From positions 35,004-99,003 of the forward strand of contig CALXRP010000003.1 in NCBI GenBank assembly GCA_944390885.1: 64,000 bases of DNA. Reading direction: 5' to 3'. The translations under genes were made by a program, and so were the position numbers. The DNA is from an uncultured Alphaproteobacteria bacterium. Its GTDB lineage: Bacteria > Pseudomonadota > Alphaproteobacteria > RF32 > CAG-239. Under the pieces are notes generated by a model. The model was not told the origin of the DNA. It saw nothing but the letters and a program-made list of their open reading frames with translations, and did no database searches. The first letter of the stretch is position 1. Every line of letters begins with the position of its first letter. Shown here in pieces: positions 5,387-37,341 of this stretch.

Positions 5387-6166
5387 ATGCTTGACATTTT
5401 TTATACCGTTTTTAAGTTCAAAGAAAAGGAAAGCCCTGACAAACTCGGGCTTTATCCCGAGCGCGCCCATACGCAGGCCATGCCGGAAAGACGGTATCTC
5501 TGGAGTTCCCGCATTTTGGTTATTTTAGCAGTAATCAGCATGAGCATAACAATGATGCTGGCGCTCACAATTTATCTGATGCTGCCGCAAAAAACCGTTT
5601 ATCCCCGTCTGTTGCAGATTAACAAATATTTTTCTCAGCTGGAGCTTGTGCAACCGGCCGAGCGCAGGATTTTGGTGACGGATCTGATTGCCGAGCAGCA
5701 TATTTCCGAATATATTACACTGCGCAATTCCATTACGTCTGATTATGATCAGCTGCTTTCCCGCTGGGGCGAAAGGCAGACGATATACTGGTATTCAGAA
5801 GCCAACGTATACAGCCGCTTTTACAATACCGACGTGAAATACAACCTGATACAATTTAAGAAAAACGCCCTGCAGCGCTATGTTAAAGTCGAATGGGTGC
5901 GGCCGTTGACGCTCGGCTTGTGGCAGGTGCAGTTTTTGACAATGGATATGACGCCGGATTCTGACAAGATTGATACCAAAATCTGGCGGGCAACACTGCG
6001 TATTACTTATATGAATCTGCCATTTAAGACCAAAGATGATGCAATGAAAAACCCGTTTGGATTTGTGGTAACCAATTATTCGCTCGGTTATGTCGGAACC
6101 CCGGAAACATCGCAACACTATCTGCAACGGGCAAGAGAACTGGCCGAAAGCGGACAAGGGGCATAA
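5387..6166 (+). CDS. VirB8-like bitopic inner-membrane protein (type IV secretion VirB8/DotI family candidate)
   Basis: About 45-aa cytoplasmic N-terminus, a single TM helix (ILVILAVISMSITMMLALTIYLML) and a periplasmic domain with a C-proximal NPFG motif (DDAMKNPFGFVVTNYSL) like the conserved NPxG of VirB8 homologues. The size of 259 aa is typical. Rho-independent terminator after it (ggggcataaaacagcccctttt). Confidence 0.4.
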   Translation: MLDIFYTVFKFKEKESPDKLGLYPERAHTQAMPERRYLWSSRILVILAVISMSITMMLALTIYLMLPQKTVYPRLLQINKYFSQLELVQPAERRILVTDLIAEQHISEYITLRNSITSDYDQLLSRWGERQTIYWYSEANVYSRFYNTDVKYNLIQFKKNALQRYVKVEWVRPLTLGLWQVQFLTMDMTPDSDKIDTKIWRATLRITYMNLPFKTKDDAMKNPFGFVVTNYSLGYVGTPETSQHYLQRARELAESGQGA

Positions 6167-6348: not shown

Positions 6349-7236
6349 TTGTTATGCATTAACTTAATAAAGGAGCGGAAAATGTTTGATAATCACAATT
6401 CCAATAACGGACAGCGGCCGACGCGCTGTAAATTCGGGTTAAAGTTTACGCCAAAGCCCGTAAATCCCGAACTTTCGGTTCAAGAGAACATAATGAATTT
6501 TATTAACGACTACCGCCAATGGGAAAAAGAAAATCAGCAACCGGATTATTCTCATCTGTCTACCAGAGAGGCGGTAAAGCAGATAGTTGATGATTTTCGC
6601 ACTCAGGAGCGGGAGGAAGAAGAGCAGAAGGCCAGACAGGCACAAATGCAGACGCCGTATGGTTCGGGGCAAACATCTTATGCGCCGGCGCAAAGCTCTT
6701 ACGGGACGCAACAGAATGCGAATATGTCATCGCAAGGAGCTTTCACTCCATCCGGTCAGGCAACATACGGTGCGACGGAACCAAACGGCGCGGCACAACA
6801 AGCTACAAGTTTTTGGGAAAGGTTTCGTACTCCTAAATCTTCTGTTTCAAAAGATTGGGGAAAATTGACAGAACAACATTTAAATGCCCATTTTCTTCAC
6901 GATCCCTATTATCCAGGCATAACTAACACCGGGCTAGTTGCTCCATTTAAAGATTTTATCAGAAACAAAACACAAATGGAGCAGGATGGATACATTGGAA
7001 ATGACAAATATTTTCATTGTAAGGGAAATTATCAGGCTGCTAAAAGAGGAGCTTGGGGAAAAGTTGTTGGCAGAACTTTAAGCTTCTTCAGAGAAGCTCC
7101 ATATGGGATTATAAAAGATGGTTTTCAAGCCAGTGCTGACGATTGGTATGCCAATCGCCAAGGTTGGGAAGGCGCAGCGAAAGGTCTTGACCTTGCTGAC
7201 GCTTGCTCAAGAAATCCTAGAGATTACTATAAATAA
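6349..7236 (+). CDS. Protein with C-terminal serum amyloid A (SAA)-like domain and Q/S/Y/T-rich low-complexity linker
   Basis: C-terminal block [39 protein letters not shown]...[33 protein letters not shown] aligns closely with vertebrate SAA ([23 protein letters not shown]...[20 protein letters not shown]). The central region is a Q/S/T/Y/G-rich linker. No signal peptide. RBS aaaggag 8 nt before the ATG. Confidence 0.65.
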   Translation: [295 protein letters not shown]

Positions 7237-28599: not shown

Positions 28600-29397
28600 A
28601 TGAATTTTCGTGATTTAGGATTAAGTGAAAAAACGCTTCAGGCTATTGATGAATTTGGTATTCAGGAGGCAACGACCGTTCAGAGCGACGTTATTCCTTC
28701 TATTTTGCAAGGAAAAGACGTGTTTACCATTGCTCCGCAGGGTTGCGGCAAAACAACTTCTTACGTTTTTCCGCTGATTGATATTATCAGCAACAAAAAA
28801 GCTGACAATATTTTAATTATTACGCCGGATTCCGAACAATCCGTCGTCGTTTCTGACCGGTTGGCCATTTTTAACAAATATCACGAAATCAACGAGGCTA
28901 CCATTAAAGACAAAGACGAAGACATTGACAACGAGGCCAATGTTATTATCGGTTCGCCTGACTTGCTGGTGGAGCTTGCCGATGACGGAAAAATCGATTT
29001 TAGCAAGATATCTATTCTGGTGGTGGATGACATTAATCTGATTAAGAAAAACAAACAGCTTGGAAATTTGGAAAAAATCCTTGAGATCCTGCCGGCGAAC
29101 AAGCAAAATATCGTCTATACCAACCGCCGGTCAAAAGAAACCCAATCTATTTTGGAAAAAATCTTAAAAGCACCGCAAGAGATTAAGGTCGATAAAGACA
29201 AAGAGCAGGAAGCTCAAATGAATGCCCAGGCTAAACCGGCGCAGAAGAAAAATGCATCGCAGCCGCGTTTTGCTCCGGCAAAAGAAGATCCGCAAGCGAT
29301 TGAACTGATGAAAAAATATAACAGTTTTCAAGGAAAAACACCGCAGTTTGTCTTGATTCAGGGTATTGTGGTTGAAACAGACAGTGCTGCAAATTAA
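28600..29397 (+). CDS. Degenerate DEAD-box helicase N-terminal (RecA-like domain 1) protein lacking the helicase C-domain
   Basis: Q-motif (FRDLGLSEKTLQAI...TVQ). Motif I degenerate (APQGCGKT). Motif II DEAD replaced by VVDD. No domain 2; instead a K/Q/A-rich C-terminal tail. Confidence 0.55.
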   Translation: MNFRDLGLSEKTLQAIDEFGIQEATTVQSDVIPSILQGKDVFTIAPQGCGKTTSYVFPLIDIISNKKADNILIITPDSEQSVVVSDRLAIFNKYHEINEATIKDKDEDIDNEANVIIGSPDLLVELADDGKIDFSKISILVVDDINLIKKNKQLGNLEKILEILPANKQNIVYTNRRSKETQSILEKILKAPQEIKVDKDKEQEAQMNAQAKPAQKKNASQPRFAPAKEDPQAIELMKKYNSFQGKTPQFVLIQGIVVETDSAAN

Positions 29398-30163: not shown

Positions 30164-30238
30164 GCCGCTATAGCTCAGTGGTAGAGCACACCCTTGGTAA
30201 GGGTGGGGTCGTAAGTCCGATTCTTACTAGCGGCACCA
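30164..30238 (+). tRNA. tRNA-Thr (anticodon GGU)
   Basis: 75-nt cloverleaf. Acceptor gccgcta/tagcggc, D-arm gctc-agtggta-gagc, anticodon stem caccc/gggtg with loop ttGGTaa, T-arm gtaag-tccgatt-cttac, discriminator A, encoded CCA. Confidence 0.85.
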
Positions 30239-30961
30239 TTTATCAGTTTCTGGCGTTTTTAGTAGTTCATCGAATGGCTTAACTATTGAAAACGCTATAT
30301 TTTTTCCTTCAGTTTTGCAGTCCGATAATATTAATTTCAAAATGTCTCTTTTTTCAGAAATAATCGGACTTTTTAAGAATTTTCCTACATTTGCAGCTAT
30401 TTCCGCGATATTTGCTAGTATTTCATCAGTTTCAGCATCAATCTCAAGGTATTTATCCATATCTTTTTGTAGTTTTTCTTTTTCCATTTCAATTTCAGTT
30501 TTTAATTCATTATACATTTTTTCATCGCATTTGCCTCTCATATAGCCACGAAACAAGGTTTTGAGCTGTTCATCTAATTGATTTATCTTGAGAGTAATAT
30601 CACGTTTGAGAGTCGCTGTATTTACTCTTTCTTCTTTAAGCTGCTTTTTGACTTCGGCTTTAATATTTTTTAGCATATCGTCACTAACGGCAAGAGGTAA
30701 CGACAATTCTTTTTCAAGCTGGGCGAGGATTTTGGCTTCATTTAATGGTTTCTGACTGCATTTTGAACGTAATTTGTTGCATTTGAGATAATTATAAGAG
30801 TGTTTGTCATCTTTTACTTTGGTTTCACAAGTCATCAAGCTGCCGCAACAACCACATCTGACTAAACCGGTAACCTTCTTTCCGGCATAATCTTTCAACC
30901 CGTCCCATATAATCGGCAGAGGTGCTTGCGCTGTAATTATTTTCCAAAAGCCAGTTTTCAA
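30227..30961 (-). pseudogene. C-terminal remnant of a large serine recombinase (zinc-ribbon and coiled-coil region); no catalytic resolvase domain
   Basis: CGCCGSLMTCETKVKDDKHSYNYLKCNKLRSKCSQK resembles a recombinase zinc-beta-ribbon, followed by a long coiled coil (EQLKTLFRGYMRGKCDEKMYNELKTEIEMEKEKLQKDMDKYLE). There is no N-terminal catalytic Ser domain. Its 3' end overlaps the tRNA-Thr 3' end by 12 nt. Confidence 0.5.
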
Positions 30962-31404
30962 AATTCTTTAACATCTCAAATCTCCTTTATACCAAATTAG
31001 CCAATCAATACCGGTTCAGAAAACACAGCCACCATAACCCGCTGCAATCTTTTACACTCAGCCATGCAATCGCTAAAATATTGATAAGGTGTTGGAAGAA
31101 TTGTGTCATTAAGTTTTACATACCACATAGTTTTTTCCTTTCATAAATAGTGTTTTGCTCATTAACTATTTATATTATGCGGTATATTTTCCCATCCGCG
31201 AGCCCCTAAAACGCTAGTTGCCAACGACATTTTGCTACGATTTGGACGGGATTACTAAGGAACGGACAAAAATCCTTTAACTTTTCGGTAAATCAGAAAA
31301 GAAGTTTTGTATAAATGATGTTTTTGATGTGATATATTAATTTGTCCAAGCCTGAAATAAAAGTACTAAAACAAAAATTTCAATATTAAGGACTATGTAT
31401 TCCT

Positions 31405-32397
31405 CTATATTAAATCTGCATAAGGCAATGATTTGATATAGTCTTCCATATATTGCCAATCAGGATCACCCTTTTGCGTTATTGGCAAACGAATAGTCTC
31501 ATTACAAAATTTATTATAAAAAGCTTTTCTGCCAAATTGAAATTTATACTTATTTTTCTTCATAATTGTTGTTATAAACAATGCATTATATTTATTTAGT
31601 TTCTCGTTATGGAAACAGTATATTTCATCTGATGCTGTAAATTCATTTTCTACATAAAAAGCAGATGCAAATGTATTATATACTATGCAATTTTTTTCTA
31701 TAAAAAGAGGATTGCTAATCTGATCTGTTTGGCTATTGTTAAATTCGGAAGCTGAATAATAATCAATATCGCCACTAATTCGATCTTCAGCAATTAATCG
31801 TTGCCCATGTGTTATTCGTGTCCATAGTTTTTTATCTATAAAGGAAAATTCGCCCCATTTTTTTATATCTTTATAGCAAGTTGATATGTTTAAAGTTTCA
31901 ATAGGATTAAATTTTACATTTTTTGTTATATTATTTGTATAATTCTCCATATAATTCCAATCAGGAGCATTGTTTTTATCTACAGGAAGAAGGATATTTT
32001 CTCTTTCCAATCTACTATTACTTATCTCTCTTCCAAAATTATACTTATAACGTATTTTTTCAAAAACTGGCTTAAGATATAGAGCTATATTTTTTGTTAA
32101 CATTCTACCTTTAGGCCAAAAAACCGTAACATGATCGGATGCTATAAAATTATAATTATGATAAAAAAGATATCCGACACTACCACTATTGCTAATTGTT
32201 AAGCAATTATTATAGACAATTACTTTAGCTCCTTTTTTTGTTGTTAAAGGGGGTGCTACATAGTCATTAATGCCATTATTATCTTTAGAGGAAGAAACAT
32301 AAGGAATATCTCCTATAATATGCTCATCTTCTGTAAAGCGAACACCTCTTTTATAATCAAAAACCTCAGAAAAAGGAAAATATTTAAATTGCTTCAT
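31405..32397 (-). CDS. Restriction-modification specificity subunit with two tandem target-recognition domains (BcgIB-like)
   Basis: 330 aa. Two homologous halves each end ...FGR...LP....G.PDWxYMExY (NFGREISNSRLERENILLPVDKNNAPDWNYMENY and QFGRKAFYNKFCNETIRLPITQKGDPDWQYMEDY). 14-nt overlap with the upstream methylase-nuclease gene. Very AT-rich. Confidence 0.5.
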   Translation of the reverse strand: MKQFKYFPFSEVFDYKRGVRFTEDEHIIGDIPYVSSSKDNNGINDYVAPPLTTKKGAKVIVYNNCLTISNSGSVGYLFYHNYNFIASDHVTVFWPKGRMLTKNIALYLKPVFEKIRYKYNFGREISNSRLERENILLPVDKNNAPDWNYMENYTNNITKNVKFNPIETLNISTCYKDIKKWGEFSFIDKKLWTRITHGQRLIAEDRISGDIDYYSASEFNNSQTDQISNPLFIEKNCIVYNTFASAFYVENEFTASDEIYCFHNEKLNKYNALFITTIMKKNKYKFQFGRKAFYNKFCNETIRLPITQKGDPDWQYMEDYIKSLPYADLI

Positions 32398-34345
32398 TTT
32401 TATTTTCCTTATAATATGCGCTCAGAATATCAAGCATTTCGGCCTCTGACTTTTCTTCAAATAATATACCGATGTCTTTTTTAGCCTCAAATATCATATA
32501 TTCACGCACAGAATTAATAAAATCCTGTTCAGATAAATTAGAATAATCTGTTTTACTATGTGCATAAATAGTCCACTCATCTTTGGGTTTGATTTTTGTT
32601 TTTACATATATGATATCATCTGGTTTTTCACCATTATTTGTTCCTCTTATTATAGATAATAATTTTTTTTCAATGCTATTCCATTTATTGTAGATATCTG
32701 TTCTGCCTTTATTTTTAGCAAGAACAAAGCCATCGTCTCGCAAATCATAAAAAATTACTTCATCATTATTATAATCAAATGCCCTATTGGTTTCAAAAAT
32801 AGCTATAGCTGTATGAGTAGAAGCATTTGGTTGGAATAAATCCTTTGGCATATTTATTACTGCTTTTAATGTATGTTTTTTTAAGATGTTATCACGAATA
32901 GCTTCATCTTTAAAATACATACTTAGAGGAGCAATAACTATCCCATAACGAGAACAATTATCTAATAACTTTGTTAAAAATGTTATTTCCTTCGGTGTTG
33001 GATCTTCTTTATTTTCCTTGCCGCTGTAAGGAGGATTAATAAAACCAATAGTAGCTTTAAATTCATCTAGCTTTTCTTGTGCTCTACAATCTTTTATCGA
33101 ATCATAATTGTAAATAGATGATTTTCCATCGCCTCTAAACATCATACTTGATATAGCACATATATACATAGTAGGATTTATTTCAAAGCCAAGTAACTGT
33201 GTCTGTTTTACATTAGCAATGGCTTCTTGTTTATCTGTTCTATTGCTTTTTTCAATTTTATTTATAATAGCATTCATCCCAGCAATCAAAAAAGCTCCTG
33301 TTCCACAACATAAATCTACTATTTTATCATTTTCTTTCAAATCGATTAGTTTAGTGAAAAGGGTTGTAATATGGCGAGGAGTCAAAACAATACCTTTTTT
33401 TACATTAGAAACACCTGCATATTTTAAAAATTCTTCATAAAACCTTCCAATAATATCATAATTTGAAGATTTAGCAAAATTACCAGTAAGTAAAGGAATA
33501 ACATTATTTTTTAGTTCATCCAGAATCTGTTTTAAAATATCACTTGTTCTTAATGTAACATCCGTTTTCAAAAATGCTAATTCAGTATCTAATACTTCTA
33601 GCTTTTCAGCCGGAATTCCTTCGTTTTTTAAAACACGAGGAGCTTGAAGTAAGATATTATCCGCTAATGTGGTTGTATCCATAGTGCTATAAGTTGCGGA
33701 GAAAGATCCTGTATTTTTATTATGAAGACATATCATCAAAGCAGACAATAAAATTGGTCTTTTTTGCGAATCTATAGATCTAAGAAGATTATTTATTTTT
33801 TTACTTGAGGAACTTATTTTTGTAACAGCCTCTTCTTCATTCAAACTATTGAATAAAGCTAAAAAAGAGTCTTTATTTACAAAATTCGTAATCTGAGGAA
33901 CAGAAATAATCTTTTGCTCTCTATTGTCTAGCATAAAACAACTAAATTTATATTGATATTCTTTTAATAAATCCCCACTTACAGCAATACCTAAAATTCT
34001 CCATGATTTAAAAACATTTTTTTGAGAATTGTCTAAATTATTTTCTTGAAAACGACTTAAATACCATTTAATGCCACTTACAGCACCCTTTTCTATATCT
34101 TCTAAATCATGTTCTTTCATTGTGGGCTTTTCTTCAACAAGAATAAGCAGCTTATTCTTTCCATCGCAATAAATTCTATCCGGATAACCTTCACGCCCTG
34201 TTTGTCTCTTTGATGAGCAAGATAAAACTTTCTTAATATCATCAGTTAATTTGCTTTTAGAATCATCCCAATCCGCAACATTATATCCTAAATTCTGCAA
34301 AACAGTTGTAACAGATGGTGTTATATTCTTATCTTTCCTTGCCAT
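32384..34345 (-). CDS. Fused PD-ExK nuclease plus gamma-class N6-adenine DNA methyltransferase (BcgIA-like Type IIB R-M subunit)
   Basis: 653 aa. Putative PD-ExK near the N-terminus (YPDRIYCDGKNKLLILVEEKP). SAM motif I VDLCCGTGAFL precedes catalytic motif IV FINPPYSG, the gamma-class order. No hsdR in the vicinity. Size and gene order match BcgIA (637 aa)/BcgIB (341 aa). Confidence 0.6.
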   Translation of the reverse strand: MARKDKNITPSVTTVLQNLGYNVADWDDSKSKLTDDIKKVLSCSSKRQTGREGYPDRIYCDGKNKLLILVEEKPTMKEHDLEDIEKGAVSGIKWYLSRFQENNLDNSQKNVFKSWRILGIAVSGDLLKEYQYKFSCFMLDNREQKIISVPQITNFVNKDSFLALFNSLNEEEAVTKISSSSKKINNLLRSIDSQKRPILLSALMICLHNKNTGSFSATYSTMDTTTLADNILLQAPRVLKNEGIPAEKLEVLDTELAFLKTDVTLRTSDILKQILDELKNNVIPLLTGNFAKSSNYDIIGRFYEEFLKYAGVSNVKKGIVLTPRHITTLFTKLIDLKENDKIVDLCCGTGAFLIAGMNAIINKIEKSNRTDKQEAIANVKQTQLLGFEINPTMYICAISSMMFRGDGKSSIYNYDSIKDCRAQEKLDEFKATIGFINPPYSGKENKEDPTPKEITFLTKLLDNCSRYGIVIAPLSMYFKDEAIRDNILKKHTLKAVINMPKDLFQPNASTHTAIAIFETNRAFDYNNDEVIFYDLRDDGFVLAKNKGRTDIYNKWNSIEKKLLSIIRGTNNGEKPDDIIYVKTKIKPKDEWTIYAHSKTDYSNLSEQDFINSVREYMIFEAKKDIGILFEEKSEAEMLDILSAYYKENKNEAI

Positions 34346-34479
34346 AATATTTCCCCGTATAACTATATTTTTATAGTTATACTAATTTTTACACAATAAT
34401 ATAAAAATTTAGTTAATATTAACATTAATTTAATCTTTAGCCATTAACGACATCAAACAACGACTCGTTAAAAAGCTCA

Positions 34480-34590
34480 ACTTTTCTTATTAACCGCTTA
34501 AATTCATCATAATTTTCAGTCCGATAACTGCACAGTATCGCGCACCATTTATTGAAATTCCGCATCTATTGCGGATTTTTTGTTTTTAAA
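34480..34590. repeat. Cassette-flanking repeat, copy 1 (between the R-M genes and GNAT)
   Basis: cttttcttattaaccgcttaaattcatcataattttcagtccgataactgcacag...ttccgcatctattgcggatttttt. It ends in a hairpin plus T-run (ccgcatctattgcgg tttttt). Confidence 0.5.
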
Positions 34591-34764
34591 CAAAAGATTA
34601 TTTAGTCCGATTTTTGAGGTTTTGAAAAGAGCAATTTTGATAAATTGATATGAAATTTCAATTTTATTAGTAATTGATTATTAAGGGAAGGCTTGCAAAA
34701 TAGATCTTATTTGCTAGACTTAAATTATTCTGTTTTTTAATTAGGACTTATTGGGAAAATAGAC

Positions 34765-35301
34765 ATGGAATTAAATTCTGAATATTTAACAGAAAGATTA
34801 GAAATTAGGATTTTAGAAGCTCATTTTGATCTTGCTAAAAAATTGCTCAATTATGTTAAAAAGAATCAAGAGCATTTTTATTTTATGTATGGTTTTGTTG
34901 ATTATGATTCTGTGGAGGAAATGTATGATTTTCTAAAAAGAAGAAAGTTAACAAATAATCCTTTTTATGGTCTTTTTTTGAAAGGATCGGATGAATTAAT
35001 CGGTTCTATTTCAATGACCGGATATGATAAAAAAAACGGCAAAGCTGAAATTGGATATACATTGGATAAAAATTTTGTTCATCAAGGTTATATGACTGAA
35101 GCTGTTACTTTTTTTGCAGAAGAGGTGATGCGTCAGGGATGTCGCAAGTTGATTGCATATATTGATATTGAAAATGTAGATAGTCAAAAAGTTTGTGAAA
35201 GATGTGGATTTATTAAAGAGGCTAGGTTAATTAAAGAAAAATTTGATCGACATAAGAGTGAATTTGTTGATATTTGTCTTTATTGTAAGTTTGCCTCTTA
35301 A
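34765..35301 (+). CDS. GNAT-family N-acetyltransferase (RimJ/RimL-like)
   Basis: 178 aa. LEIRILEAHFDLAKKLLNYV..., motif A region IGSISMTGYDKKNGKAEIGYTLDKNFVHQGYMTEAVTFF, then RQGCRKLIAYIDIENVDSQKVCERCGF. Confidence 0.75.
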   Translation: MELNSEYLTERLEIRILEAHFDLAKKLLNYVKKNQEHFYFMYGFVDYDSVEEMYDFLKRRKLTNNPFYGLFLKGSDELIGSISMTGYDKKNGKAEIGYTLDKNFVHQGYMTEAVTFFAEEVMRQGCRKLIAYIDIENVDSQKVCERCGFIKEARLIKEKFDRHKSEFVDICLYCKFAS

Positions 35302-35329
35302 TAAACTCTCATAGCAAATTTTGCTTAAG

Positions 35330-35392
35330 AGGATTCATTTTCATATTCACCAGTCCCGATAACTGCACAGAAAAAGTGCAGCATTTAACACA
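35330..35392. repeat. Cassette-flanking repeat, copy 2 (short form)
   Basis: cagtcccgataactgcacagaaaaagtgcagcatttaacac shares the core with copies 1 and 3. Contains a perfect hairpin ctgcac-agaaaaa-gtgcag. Confidence 0.45.
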
Positions 35393-35427
35393 AAACCTTC
35401 TGATAGGGGGCTGATGTTGGAACGGAC

Positions 35428-36036
35428 TTATAATAGTTTGTGAATATCATATTCATCATAGCCTTCATAATAATAACTGACATTAATGCCTTTCATAAAG
35501 ATTTCTCGTTCATCAATTTTATCTGTCAGAGCATTTTTTAGGAGATGTTTTATTTCAATATCTTTAACAGGGCTTCTTTCCATTGCTGATAAATAATCTT
35601 CTTTATCAATTTTATTCCAATCAACAACTTTTTTAATTTCTTTCTTAAAGATTAAATCCAGCCAAATTCTTGTTGCGCGGCCGTTTCCTTCCCGGAAAGG
35701 ATGGGCAATATTCATTTCAACATATTTTTCAACAATTTCATCAAAAGTTGATTGAGGCATTTTATCTATATGTTTTAGGGCTTGCTCCAAATACATCACC
35801 GGAGCAAATCTGAAGTTGCCTTTTGATATGTTAACATCACGCATTTTTCCGGCAAAACCATAAATGTCTTCAAACAAATACTTATGAATCTGTTTTAATC
35901 CGGCAAATGTGCCTACTTTTATCTGATTGATTTTGCCACTATCAAAAAACTTTTTAGCCTTTTCTTTACTGAGTTTTTCTTCAATCTTATTCAATTCAAT
36001 TTGATTGGTAATATTCAATTTATTTTCTAAAACCAT
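35428..36036 (-). CDS. Class III Fic-family AMPylator (Fic motif plus C-terminal auto-inhibitory helix)
   Basis: Fic motif [12 protein letters not shown] (HxFx[DE]GNGRxxR). C-terminal [12 protein letters not shown] contains the [ST]xxxE[GN] inhibitory motif (S-YYY-E-G). About 200 aa, like the self-contained NmFic type. The start is likely an internal Met (MVLENK); the track starts at 36048. Confidence 0.75.
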
Positions 36037-36162
36037 TATAAAAATCATCTTTCATAAAAAATGCATTATATTTTGATAATAATATAAAATTGCTAAAATT
36101 TACATAATAAAATCAAATTGCCAACACTTCAGATTGTTGTTCCAAGCTATCTTCCAATGACT

Positions 36163-36270
36163 CCATTTTCTTGTTAATTGTTTAAGTTCATCATAAAATT
36201 CAGTCTGATAAACTACACAGCAAAAGCACAGCATTTTTTAAGATTTCCGCATTTATTACAGATTATTTGA
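36163..36270. repeat. Cassette-flanking repeat, copy 3
   Basis: ttttcttgttaattgtttaagttcatcataaaattcagtctgataaactacacagcaaaagcacagcattttttaagatttccgcatttattacagattatttg is about 80% identical to copy 1 over about 100 nt. ORF 36275..36514 next to it is probably spurious. Confidence 0.5.
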
Positions 36271-36516
36271 CTTTTTGATGTTTTTTAAGAACTCTGTAAA
36301 ATCTTTCGTTTGCTCAGGAGTAACATTTTTGTTTTCATATTTTTCCGGCGGGAAAAAGTATGTCCCTTGGGTCGGTTCCGGTCTAAATTACCTAAATAAA
36401 CGGACTTTTTATCATCCAACAGCAACATTTTGTGCTCAGTATTCTTTTTTTGCTTTTAATTTTTATATAATAAATTTATGCTGTGGGCATGGTCTTAACA
36501 ATTACGGAGGATAATT

Positions 36517-37341
36517 ATGACAAAAAGCGTGAAAAACAACGGCCTTTACACGGCCTCGCTTATTGACAGATTTTTTAGCTGGCTGAAAAAAACCGCTTAT
36601 AATAATTTTTTGGAAACAAACGAAAAATGGTTTACCAAAATTGGTTTGACATTGATGTATTTTATTGCCGTGATGTCTTTGCTGGTTGCTATTGTTTTTG
36701 TTTTGAAATATAATGCGTTAAGCACTTTTTATGTTTTGACTGCCGGAATCTGCGGCGTGTTTATTACAATTGTTTTTCAATATATTGCCGCCAAAACAAT
36801 TCCCTGCCTTAATACGTTGATCCATAATACGCCGGCAAAATTCTCTTCAACCGCCGTTTTAGAAGTTTTGGCCTTGGCTGCCGGGATTTGCGGTGTTATT
36901 GCCCTGATCGGCGGGCTGATCCTATCAATCAAAGCCAGCAGTCTTTACTTCTTTATTTCCGGTATTGCCATTTTTGTTATTTGTGAATACTGGATGGCCA
37001 TGGCTATGAAACCGGAGTTGCTCAATATTGAAATTGTAAAAAACATTTCTGCCGGAGAAGAATTTATCGGCTTATTGACATTTTTTGCCAAAGGTTCTTT
37101 GAAAATTATTCCGGTAATTTTCTGCGGCTGCATGATTTTTGCCGCTTATGACCTGATTGCCATGATGTTTGTTAAATATAATTATATCGGGGAAATTAAT
37201 CTGGAGGCCGGAATCGTTGCTTATGCAATGTGCGGTGCCCTGCTTCCGCTGTTTGGATATGTTTCATTCCTCGGTTATTATTTCACAATTGACATTGCAC
37301 GGGCAATTCTTTCAATCCCGGCAAAGCTGGATAAAAAATAA
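36517..37341 (+). CDS. Polytopic membrane protein, hypothetical
   Basis: 274 aa with RBS ggagg, 6-7 hydrophobic helices and a bidirectional terminator after it. Confidence 0.4.
   Translation: MTKSVKNNGLYTASLIDRFFSWLKKTAYNNFLETNEKWFTKIGLTLMYFIAVMSLLVAIVFVLKYNALSTFYVLTAGICGVFITIVFQYIAAKTIPCLNTLIHNTPAKFSSTAVLEVLALAAGICGVIALIGGLILSIKASSLYFFISGIAIFVICEYWMAMAMKPELLNIEIVKNISAGEEFIGLLTFFAKGSLKIIPVIFCGCMIFAAYDLIAMMFVKYNYIGEINLEAGIVAYAMCGALLPLFGYVSFLGYYFTIDIARAILSIPAKLDKK

Follow-up and report, generated by a model that had tools for sequence, protein, structure and literature searches.

A tRNA-anchored array of small gene cassettes in uncultured gut Alphaproteobacteria, probably assembled by a large serine recombinase

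How did the genes of this locus come to stand between repeats? In a stretch of 64,000 nucleotides from an uncultured alphaproteobacterium (contig CALXRP010000003.1, positions 35,004 to 99,003; this whole stretch is called the window below), a GNAT acetyltransferase gene and a Fic AMP-transferase gene are bracketed by three copies of a repeat, and a sequence-only reading had likened them to integron cassettes with attC-like sites or to accretion bounded by repetitive extragenic palindromic (REP) elements. Having compared the locus with related genomes, we concluded that the locus is probably a cassette array set up by a large serine recombinase (LSR) behind a tRNA-Thr(GGT) gene, at its 3′ end, with the GNAT and Fic genes as the two oldest and distal members and the repeats being the recombination-site borders of the cassettes.

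As summarized in Table 1, the array is a 6-kb stretch of 28-30% GC, the surrounding genome having 42-48% GC. The low GC content begins at the 3′ end of the tRNA gene and returns to the genome level beyond position ~36500, and the order outward from the tRNA is an LSR remnant, a BcgI-like restriction-modification (R-M) pair, repeat copy 1, GNAT, copy 2, Fic, copy 3, and core genes. The array therefore starts 4.3 kb to the left of the region first singled out, for which no link to a tRNA had been made. On the chromosome, the left half of the attachment site is provided by the 3′ end of this tRNA, from its T-loop AGTCCGAT to the terminal GCACCA, and it is here that the array is anchored.

Table 1. 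Features of the tRNA-linked array (window positions; P and P′, left and right arms of a unit)
Feature	Position	Strand	Basis or remark
tRNA-Thr(GGT), intact	30164..30238	+	ARAGORN; Rfam 70 bits
Cassette 1, 4,309 bp, recombinase remnant and BcgI-like R-M	30239..34547		strain-specific insertion exactly at tRNA CCA end
LSR gene remnant	30227..30961	-	Pfam Zn_ribbon_recom; translation; homologs
Inverted pair AGTCCGAT-N36-ATCGGACT	30319..30370		inside recombinase 3′ coding region (codes KSPII...LSDC)
BcgI-like R-M pair, cargo of cassette 1	31405..34345	-	Pfam N6_Mtase, Methylase_S; PADLOC
RM subunit, 653 aa	32384-34345	-	PADLOC REase_MTase_IIG, profile positions 33-631 of 637
Specificity subunit, 330 aa	31405-32397	-	Methylase_S; PADLOC Specificity_II
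Copy 1, complete P arm (element-side left half-site)	34437..34547	+	
Right arm P′ opening the GNAT cassette	34548..34640	+	terminator, then half palindrome (AGTCCGAT 34604-34611)
GNAT, cargo of cassette 2 (34548-35383)	34765..35301	+	Acetyltransf_3/RimL-like
Copy 2, decayed P arm of the GNAT cassette	35322..35383	+	tail frame broken; core CCCGATAACTGCACAGAAAAAGTGCAGCA
Class III Fic AMP-transferase (NmFic type), cargo of cassette 3 (35384-36233)	35428..36048	-	
Copy 3, partly decayed P arm of the Fic cassette	36100..36233	+	AGTCTGAT, ...CACAGCA
Array distal end, decayed terminator-type right arm (TTTTTTAAGATTTCCGCATTTATTACAGATTATTTG)	36234..36270	+	aligned with other right arms

Profile search and alignment showed that the three repeats bracketing the GNAT and Fic genes are real, and the identity of ~80% reported earlier for copies 1 and 3 held (83% across a 46-nt ungapped stretch). 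The 25-nt core TTCATCATAAWWTTCAGTCYGATAA occurs exactly twice in the 64 kb, with no occurrence expected from 100 shuffles, and a two-sequence profile matched copies 1 and 3 at 34470-34599 and 36154-36283 with E values of ~1e-33. With the same profile, copy 2 (35322-35387) yielded an E value of 1e-4 in the window and of 2e-7 in relatives; it is shorter and decayed relative to copies 1 and 3, differing from copy 1 by a 21-nt deletion and one additional C, and CCGATAACTGCACAG is exactly common to both. The borders first drawn around the repeats were somewhat off: the conserved unit of copy 1 extends from ~34437 to ~34640 and comprises a left arm, the core, a terminator and a half palindrome.

Using the exact Fic and GNAT proteins, we retrieved 20 loci with the same flanking genes from public assemblies (all comparison sequences are metagenome assemblies; related loci are designated L plus a number). 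The slot between the tRNA and META gene on one side and a 274-aa membrane protein gene on the other proved hypervariable among these 20 loci, its contents including, depending on the strain, Ank, HNH_3, NERD, DUF4379, Peptidase_S51, N6_Mtase, AraC, Elm1 and unknown proteins, with GNAT and Fic alone as the minimum in some strains and one strain without GNAT. The repeat profile matched almost every gene-block border, in a single orientation. Variation among strains in gene content between repeats, proposed earlier as a check for a cassette system, was thus found. Compared with L013, the window carries a clean 4,309-bp insertion (30239-34547) between flanks that are 99.2-99.6% identical; the insertion edges read tRNA...GGCACCA and ...GCGCACCA, each followed by TTTAT, and the inserted cassette is edged on both sides by the 11-nt shared string GCACCATTTAT. 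Other strains with ~99% identical flanks carry different, LSR-less insertions at the same nucleotide. A sequence identical to the right arm at 34548..34640 follows the actual tRNA in L013, a different cassette is inserted exactly at the position of copy 2 in L016, and the cluster of the GNAT cassette has 14 members with 7 different upstream neighbors (the tRNA counted as one). One cassette of 845-871 nt directly follows the tRNA in L007, whereas in L016 it is found with GNAT on one side and Fic on the other.

At the slot's distal end, an ankyrin-repeat gene of 556-566 aa separates copy 3 from the 274-aa core gene in many strains (L012 11498-13171, L014 9951-11621, L015 11492-13192) and is absent from the window (36275-36450), L013 and L017; no att-like site was detected at its borders.

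A wider search recovered the repeat in ~80 related genomes, at nearly every cassette border and in one orientation. The core pattern gave 96 matching stretches in bacterial and archaeal assemblies taken at one genome per species, and those listed all came from uncultured gut Alphaproteobacteria (of humans, ruminants, horse and mouse), which we take to be of the RF32 type. Across 119 loci, 243 cores were collected with a median spacing of 944 bp, and 118 of the 119 cores scored beside tRNA-Thr(GGT) lay on its strand and downstream of it; the 177 cassettes fell into 114 clusters. Of 998 homology breakpoints between loci, 65% were found at most 150 nt from a core, a zone holding 9% of the bases, and they peaked at -5 to +10 of the CCA end. 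While 51 tRNA-Thr(GGT) genes head arrays in related loci, arrays with the same cassettes and recombinase were also found behind tRNA-Leu(TAA) (L090, L113) and tRNA-Thr(CGT) (L096), L145 being also listed, and both of these tRNAs have GCACCA and the GTTCGA T-loop at the same distance as tRNA-Thr(GGT). Since other tRNAs ending in GCACCA carry arrays, chromosomal entry is not restricted to a single site in this family. The core pattern had no match in a viral contig collection, and a prophage or satellite origin was rejected on that ground.

Alignment of 47 distinct copies divided the repeat into a left arm, a core and a right arm, with the core and right arm being homologous to the 3′ end of tRNA-Thr and its downstream terminator: the tRNA reads gtaAGTCCGATtcttactagCGGCACCAttt, the repeat reads ttcAGTCCGATaactgcacagtatcGCGCACCAttt, and at the head of an array the actual tRNA replaces the left arm. 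In most copies the right arm (P′) has a terminator hairpin plus T run with compensatory stems (TTCCGCAT/ATGCGGAA, GCACC/GGTGC, CCGCC/GGCGG), and AGTCCGAT-N36-ATCGGACT follows ~20 nt beyond the T run. Among 253 distinct right arms, ~168 were of this terminator type with compensatory stem changes, and 70 distinct right arms combined the terminator with the full AGTCCGAT-N36-ATCGGACT pair. The terminator of the GNAT cassette P′ (stem at 34559-34575 plus T run) is the sole terminator-like site in 34300-36550, and such a P′ terminator serves the tRNA whenever its cassette stands first in line. The decayed right arm at the array's distal end is probably the original tRNA-downstream sequence or the start of a lost cassette.

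The left arm (P, ~75 nt) encodes on its minus strand a conserved peptide, WC[AE]ILC[NSD]YRT[NEK]xY[DE][DE]FKxL[ST]RKIE..., followed by a stop codon. Of 92 distinct copies, 88 keep this frame uninterrupted over 24 codons or more, the summed entropies at codon positions 1, 2 and 3 were 16.8, 13.5 and 22.6 (the third being most variable), and the ratio of nonsynonymous to synonymous polymorphism (pN/pS) was 0.5-0.6. In the window, the minus strand of copy 1 encodes an orphan recombinase tail (WCAILCSYRTENYDEFKRLIRKVELFNESLFDVVNG, then a stop codon), and that of copy 3 encodes a 44-aa open reading frame (ORF) with a degraded tail (..VVYQTEFYDELKQLTRKW...). The 42- and 44-aa minus-strand ORFs (34437-34565 and 36100-36234) were rejected as independent genes or as a class I Fic antitoxin, because they have no (S/T)xxxE(G/N) motif, mostly lack a conserved start and consist of LSR tail codons.

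The consensus P arm AGTCCGATAAttGCA.AgTATcgCGCACCA compared with the tRNA GTCGtAAGTCCGATTCTTactAGCGGCACCA revealed a motif shifted by 5 bp. Counted back from the CCA end, the start of AGTCCGAT is 30 nt away in 170 distinct P arms and 25 nt away in 81 distinct tRNA ends, such that AGTCCGAT lies 16 nt ahead of GCACCA in the P arm and 11 nt ahead in the tRNA T-loop (in copy 1, AGTCCGAT is at 34518-34525 and GCACCA finishes at 34547). For serine integrases, Rutherford et al. 2013 (PMC3783163) described a distal zinc-ribbon-domain (ZD) motif whose distance from the crossover is 5 bp shorter in an attB half-site than in an attP one, and the shift seen in the left half-site matches this attP-versus-attB rule. 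Internal junctions preceding an LSR gene carry a non-tRNA spacer, which places the crossover in or beside GCACCA-TTT. A crossover at the AGTCCGAT motif was rejected for LSR-carrying junctions on account of this spacer, and one at the center of the AGTCCGAT-N36-ATCGGACT pair was rejected because the homology breaks fall elsewhere. The repeat was also rejected as a displaced tRNA fragment, since only AGTCCGAT and GCACCA match and the spacer is different and 5 nt longer.

The perfect 8-bp inverted pair AGTCCGAT-N36-ATCGGACT lies 56-80 nt past the crossover in the window and in the right arms of L011, L012, L014, L016, L021, L022 and L126. It is retained in recombinase-less right arms despite diverged spacers, and it looks like a conserved extra putative binding site of attP size (52 bp). 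ATCGGACT also occurs in a P-arm-like context ~30 nt upstream of the recombinase start (L021 18489-18496, L120 5969-5999, L121 4384-4414), and the LSR may bind its own promoter region.

The recombinase itself stands at the head of the window array as a remnant retaining only the zinc-ribbon, coiled-coil and C-terminal parts; ~270 N-terminal residues are missing, and the ORF terminates with ...TDKWCR, its stop codon being within the tRNA 3′ end. A protein search recovered 102 close homologs, all fragments and up to 93% identical. Some LSR homologs end in antisense readings of tRNA 3′ ends, and three (P0018, P0034 and P0060) run on into ...KWCAILCSYRTNEYEEFKRLIRKIELF... (KWCAILCSYRT), which is the left-arm peptide. 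Since the left-arm peptide is the C terminus of LSR homologs, the LSR gene reads across its own attP; the left arm holds the alternative last ~30 codons of the LSR. A metagenome scan with a 503-aa relative as the query yielded many intact LSR genes, of which those of 514-534 aa abut tRNA-Thr or tRNA-Leu and end with ...KWCR and a stop codon, and those of 543-571 aa (L121, L126, L140) carry the tail and then a P arm. The intact relatives (514-551 aa) possess the Resolvase, Recombinase and Zn_ribbon_recom domains and the serine motif ARVSSEEQ, as expected of an LSR; of these domains the window copy retains Zn_ribbon_recom alone. Each element has one LSR gene. Searching PDB sequences with an intact LSR (phmmer) returned none at E ≤ 0.001.

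The comparison shows how the site is built, that it is linked to the LSR, that insertions vary between strains at exactly this site, and how the arrays are distributed; the following course of events would account for all of this. A mobile unit would run from a right arm P′ through its cargo to a left arm P, and the LSR would recombine the joined P-P′ site of the circular unit with the tRNA end by a crossover within GCACCA-TTTAT. The newcomer would land directly behind the tRNA and displace older units outward, so that each border would consist of the P arm of the proximal unit, the core and the P′ arm of the distal unit; the three repeats of the window would be such borders. The incoming P′ arm would supply the terminator of the tRNA. 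Beside the tRNA the LSR ends with ...KWCR, and in the circle or behind another unit it would gain the tail AILCSYRTNxYDDFKxLSRKIE.... Most units have no LSR gene, a related shorter P′ arm with a terminator replacing the LSR 3′ end, and these would be captured and moved in trans, like integron cassettes and recombinase-less cassettes resembling the staphylococcal cassette chromosome (SCC). The GNAT and Fic units, which nearly all strains carry and whose sites (copies 2 and 3) have decayed, would be the oldest; the LSR/BcgI unit, whose P arm (copy 1) is intact, would have arrived recently.

From these layouts we infer catalysis by this LSR, mobilization in trans, a role for the tail and reuse of the tRNA-P′ junction (formally attL) as a target. 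The LSR-less cassettes behave as units, as judged by their shared right-arm design, the exact-site polymorphism, the cassette found at two positions and the layout of L126, in which an LSR-less one-gene (202-aa) cassette separates the tRNA from an intact LSR whose tail is supplied by the P arm of that cassette; these features favor capture in trans.

Several observations weigh against this account. The window itself has only a truncated LSR, and the arrays of this species showed no intact one. Neither a circular cassette nor an empty tRNA site was recovered, and six contigs were without terminal overlap. No inverted ZD-type motif was present at the expected distance in the right half-site, only TTTNTNA(A/G) being common there. 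Ahead of the Fic cassette, the core AACTGCACAG(A/C)AAAAGTGCAGCA (window 35352-35383; L016, L001) is the same behind three different left arms; this may reflect gene conversion or exchange at a second point, and a crossover fixed at one place would not lead one to expect it. In metagenome assemblies, misjoins could arise at repeats of 130-200 bp; independent assemblies agree, however. A canonical serine integrase uses a 2-bp crossover without needing long attP-attB identity, recombines attP with attB only, and requires a directionality factor for excision; to our knowledge, canonical LSRs do not recombine attP with attL. The arrays of L021 and L126 imply entry at the tRNA-P′ junction, and repeated entry there needs a relaxed or unusual site logic. 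The fullest version of the model is a working, integron-like LSR capture platform, in which the tRNA 3′ end serves as attI for hundreds of recombinase-less cassettes with bipartite sites, the self-swapped LSR tail acts as a switch between the just-integrated and the free or internal state, and tRNA-P′ is accepted as a fresh target against the rule of attP with attB only. We offer this version tentatively, as a real possibility about which we are rather more doubtful than convinced.

The same LSR family could have left a different kind of array, in which the cassettes are eroded stumps of separate full-size LSR islands, the recombinase-less ones were never mobile, and the locus is a deletion graveyard. 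In keeping with this, the LSR genes in arrays are mostly fragments of many lengths (127-401 aa), the terminator-type right arms are recognizably derived from the LSR 3′ end (with the same inverted pair and 22-24 nt shorter), and full islands of 7-9 kb stand in tandem in L021. Erosion, however, should generate right arms with random end points, whereas about two-thirds of them (~168/253) share one derived architecture with the terminator hairpin directly after the crossover. Nor does it fit single-gene units that have both arms intact and whose presence, precisely at the tRNA end, varies between strains with ~99% identical flanks, the occurrence of one unit at two array positions (L007, L016), the LSR-less unit between the tRNA and an intact LSR in L126, or a median spacing of merely 944 bp. 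We thus consider the graveyard unlikely, though it is the alternative to be taken most seriously.

Cassettes might also be swapped purely by homologous recombination after DNA uptake, with the repeats and flanks serving as portable homology, as in the minimal mobile elements of Neisseria, and with no enzyme acting today. The flanks are indeed highly conserved between strains, RecA-dependent exchange could make use of repeats that are 100-200 bp long and 80-95% identical, and the constant pre-Fic core behind different P arms resembles gene conversion. Such exchange leaves unexplained why a mimic of the tRNA end is fused to LSR tail codons, why insertions begin at one and the same nucleotide after CCA, why 118 of 119 cases agree in orientation, and why the stop codons of intact LSR genes, which adjoin the tRNA, fall within it. 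As the sole explanation it is quite improbable, and homologous recombination probably reshuffles the arrays secondarily.

The integron comparison fared differently in its two parts. Small, mostly one-gene cassettes with a species-typical repeat in one orientation, and cargo types (GNAT, NUDIX, toxin-like, restriction) resembling those of chromosomal integrons, would suit an integron remnant, that is, a cluster of attC sites without an integrase (CALIN). Yet single-strand folds of copies 1 to 3 on both strands contained no long bulged hairpin, and the R''-L''/L'-R' fold expected of attC, an imperfect hairpin with extrahelical bases, was not formed: copy 1 gave only the 6-bp terminator stem (z = -3.1 and -2.6), and copies 2 and 3 folded no better than shuffles (z of -0.5 to +0.6). 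Rfam searches of the whole window at the gathering threshold and of 34300-36500 at E ≤ 1 found only two tRNAs. No Phage_integrase or IntI match was obtained among 30 ORFs of the window (five large ORFs lying outside the scan) or in the flank Pfam lists of the 20 related loci, in line with the statement that no IntI is visible; a recombinase is visible, though, in the truncated LSR beside the tRNA. Moreover, the repeat holds LSR tail codons and the tRNA mimic, and the genes lie on both strands, unlike the mostly co-oriented and promoterless cassettes of integrons. The cassette array is therefore supported, the integron reading is rejected as to mechanism, and a CALIN is very improbable. Ordinary intergenic elements without a part in gene movement (REP-like or bacterial interspersed mosaic elements, or shared terminators) can be dismissed, REP-bounded accretion included: copy 1 does have a good intrinsic terminator, but copies 2 and 3 have none, within the window the repeat occurs nowhere but in the tRNA-linked array, in the ~80 genomes it is tied to tRNA-Thr or tRNA-Leu, and homology breakpoints pile up on it.

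With regard to cargo, both genes between the repeats of the window had been identified correctly. Fic is an NmFic equivalog (NCBIfam NF046029, 318 bits versus a cutoff of 230); its translation contains the HxFx(D/E)GNGRxxR motif, and the C-terminal SYYYEG fits the inhibitory helix (S/T)xxxE(G/N), which makes it a class III enzyme. It also matches the PADLOC candidate PDC-S04 (1.6e-106). The GNAT protein is best matched by RimL-like and Acetyltransf_3 profiles, weakly and below curated cutoffs; there was no PADLOC match to it and no partner ORF in its cassette, that is, no antitoxin such as the adjacent ribbon-helix-helix antitoxin of type II toxin-antitoxin GNAT toxins (TacT/AtaT type). The earlier suggestion of toxin-type enzymes was only half right: Fic is self-inhibited, and the GNAT has no antitoxin partner. 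Across arrays, many cassettes carry phage-defense genes, and the cargo includes R-M, NERD, HNH, Fic, GNAT, DUF4379, NUDIX and Ham1 genes, a reverse transcriptase with a helix-turn-helix (HTH) protein, HTH with M78 peptidase, and many family-less proteins. It is carried on both strands (GNAT on the plus strand, Fic and R-M on the minus strand), and related arrays are likewise mixed. In L022 (12407-13694), an RVT_1 reverse-transcriptase gene has an adjacent HTH gene, a layout typical of defense cassettes of the retron type or the DRT type.

We found no description of this tRNA-anchored LSR cassette system in the literature, and by comparison with known systems the LSR-driven array would be new, its closest relative in logic being the SCC family. 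Composite SCC/SCCmec islands and tandem SCC-like defense cassettes involve Ccr LSRs, the 3′ end of one conserved gene, and recombinase-less, defense-rich cassettes mobilized in trans (PMC11470126; PMC6222049). The present array shares with these, and with the Enterococcus cassette chromosome, an LSR, the 3′ end of a single gene, tandem att-delimited arrays and defense cassettes. It differs in that the target is a tRNA 3′ end rather than rlmH (orfX), that one LSR takes the place of CcrAB/CcrC, that the cassettes are far smaller (median of ~0.9 kb, often one gene), that the LSR reads across attP and has its C terminus altered on integration, that the cassette brings the tRNA terminator, and that the host is an uncultured gut alphaproteobacterial clade.

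Integrons resemble the array in their fixed entry site, small cassettes in one orientation with the newest first, diverse repertoire (here 114 clusters among 177 cassettes), and defense, GNAT and NUDIX genes. In contrast, there is no IntI or folded single-stranded attC here; double-stranded, LSR-type half-sites are present, the entry site is a tRNA end and not attI, and the cargo occupies both strands and has signals of its own. Streptococcal integrative and conjugative elements (ICEs) likewise have non-autonomous, att-bounded cis-mobilizable elements (CIMEs) in tandem with an autonomous element using the same site. CIMEs are sporadic decay products of tyrosine-integrase ICEs, not a numerous family of one-gene cassettes whose arms are conserved.

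Entry at a tRNA, displacement of older elements inward, and scattered remnants with tRNA-like att sites have been described for Islander/TIGER islands and Prochlorococcus tycheposons (10.1101/2020.12.28.424599; PMC7192596), and the array resembles these in its entry at a tRNA, displaced older units and repeated tRNA-like att sites. Those systems rely almost exclusively on tyrosine integrases and contain true displaced tRNA fragments, whereas an LSR and a mimic of the tRNA end are found here; the crossover falls at or after CCA and the tRNA is never split, so the array does not qualify as an Islander island. A serine integrase at a tRNA gene was 'not known' in 2014 (Islander paper), and in 2020 it was described as not previously reported and needing proof (PMC7192596). 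In Mx8 IntP/attP and SSV-type integrases, attP lies inside the integrase gene, and on integration the Mx8 protein has its C terminus changed and the SSV gene is split, both cases being cited in the Islander paper. The recombinase ORF crosses attP in all of these; Mx8 and SSV enzymes are tyrosine recombinases, whereas here a serine recombinase gains its alternative tail from whichever cassette stands in front.

If the proposed mechanism is true, these arrays represent a second, mechanistically independent route to integron-scale arrays, which uses a serine recombinase and double-stranded sites versus IntI and folded attC, and they document a well-populated family of tRNA-targeting serine integrases. 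By storing R-M, NERD, HNH, Fic and unknown genes in uncultured Alphaproteobacteria of human and animal guts, they offer a compact hunting ground for new defense genes. Engineers of serine integrases, too, could take an interest in an LSR that is specific for tRNA ends, has clearly readable half-sites and may carry a tail-swap switch.

Two further features of the window lie outside the array. Just upstream of the META gene and the tRNA, a 265-aa ORF (28600-29397) has the N-terminal domain only of a DEAD-box helicase, and its length is kept in all related strains. At 5387-6163 and 6349-7233, the gene for a VirB8-domain protein adjoins a gene matching the serum amyloid A domain (PF00277, 1.6e-13), a domain unusual for a bacterium, and the local GC content goes down to 39%.

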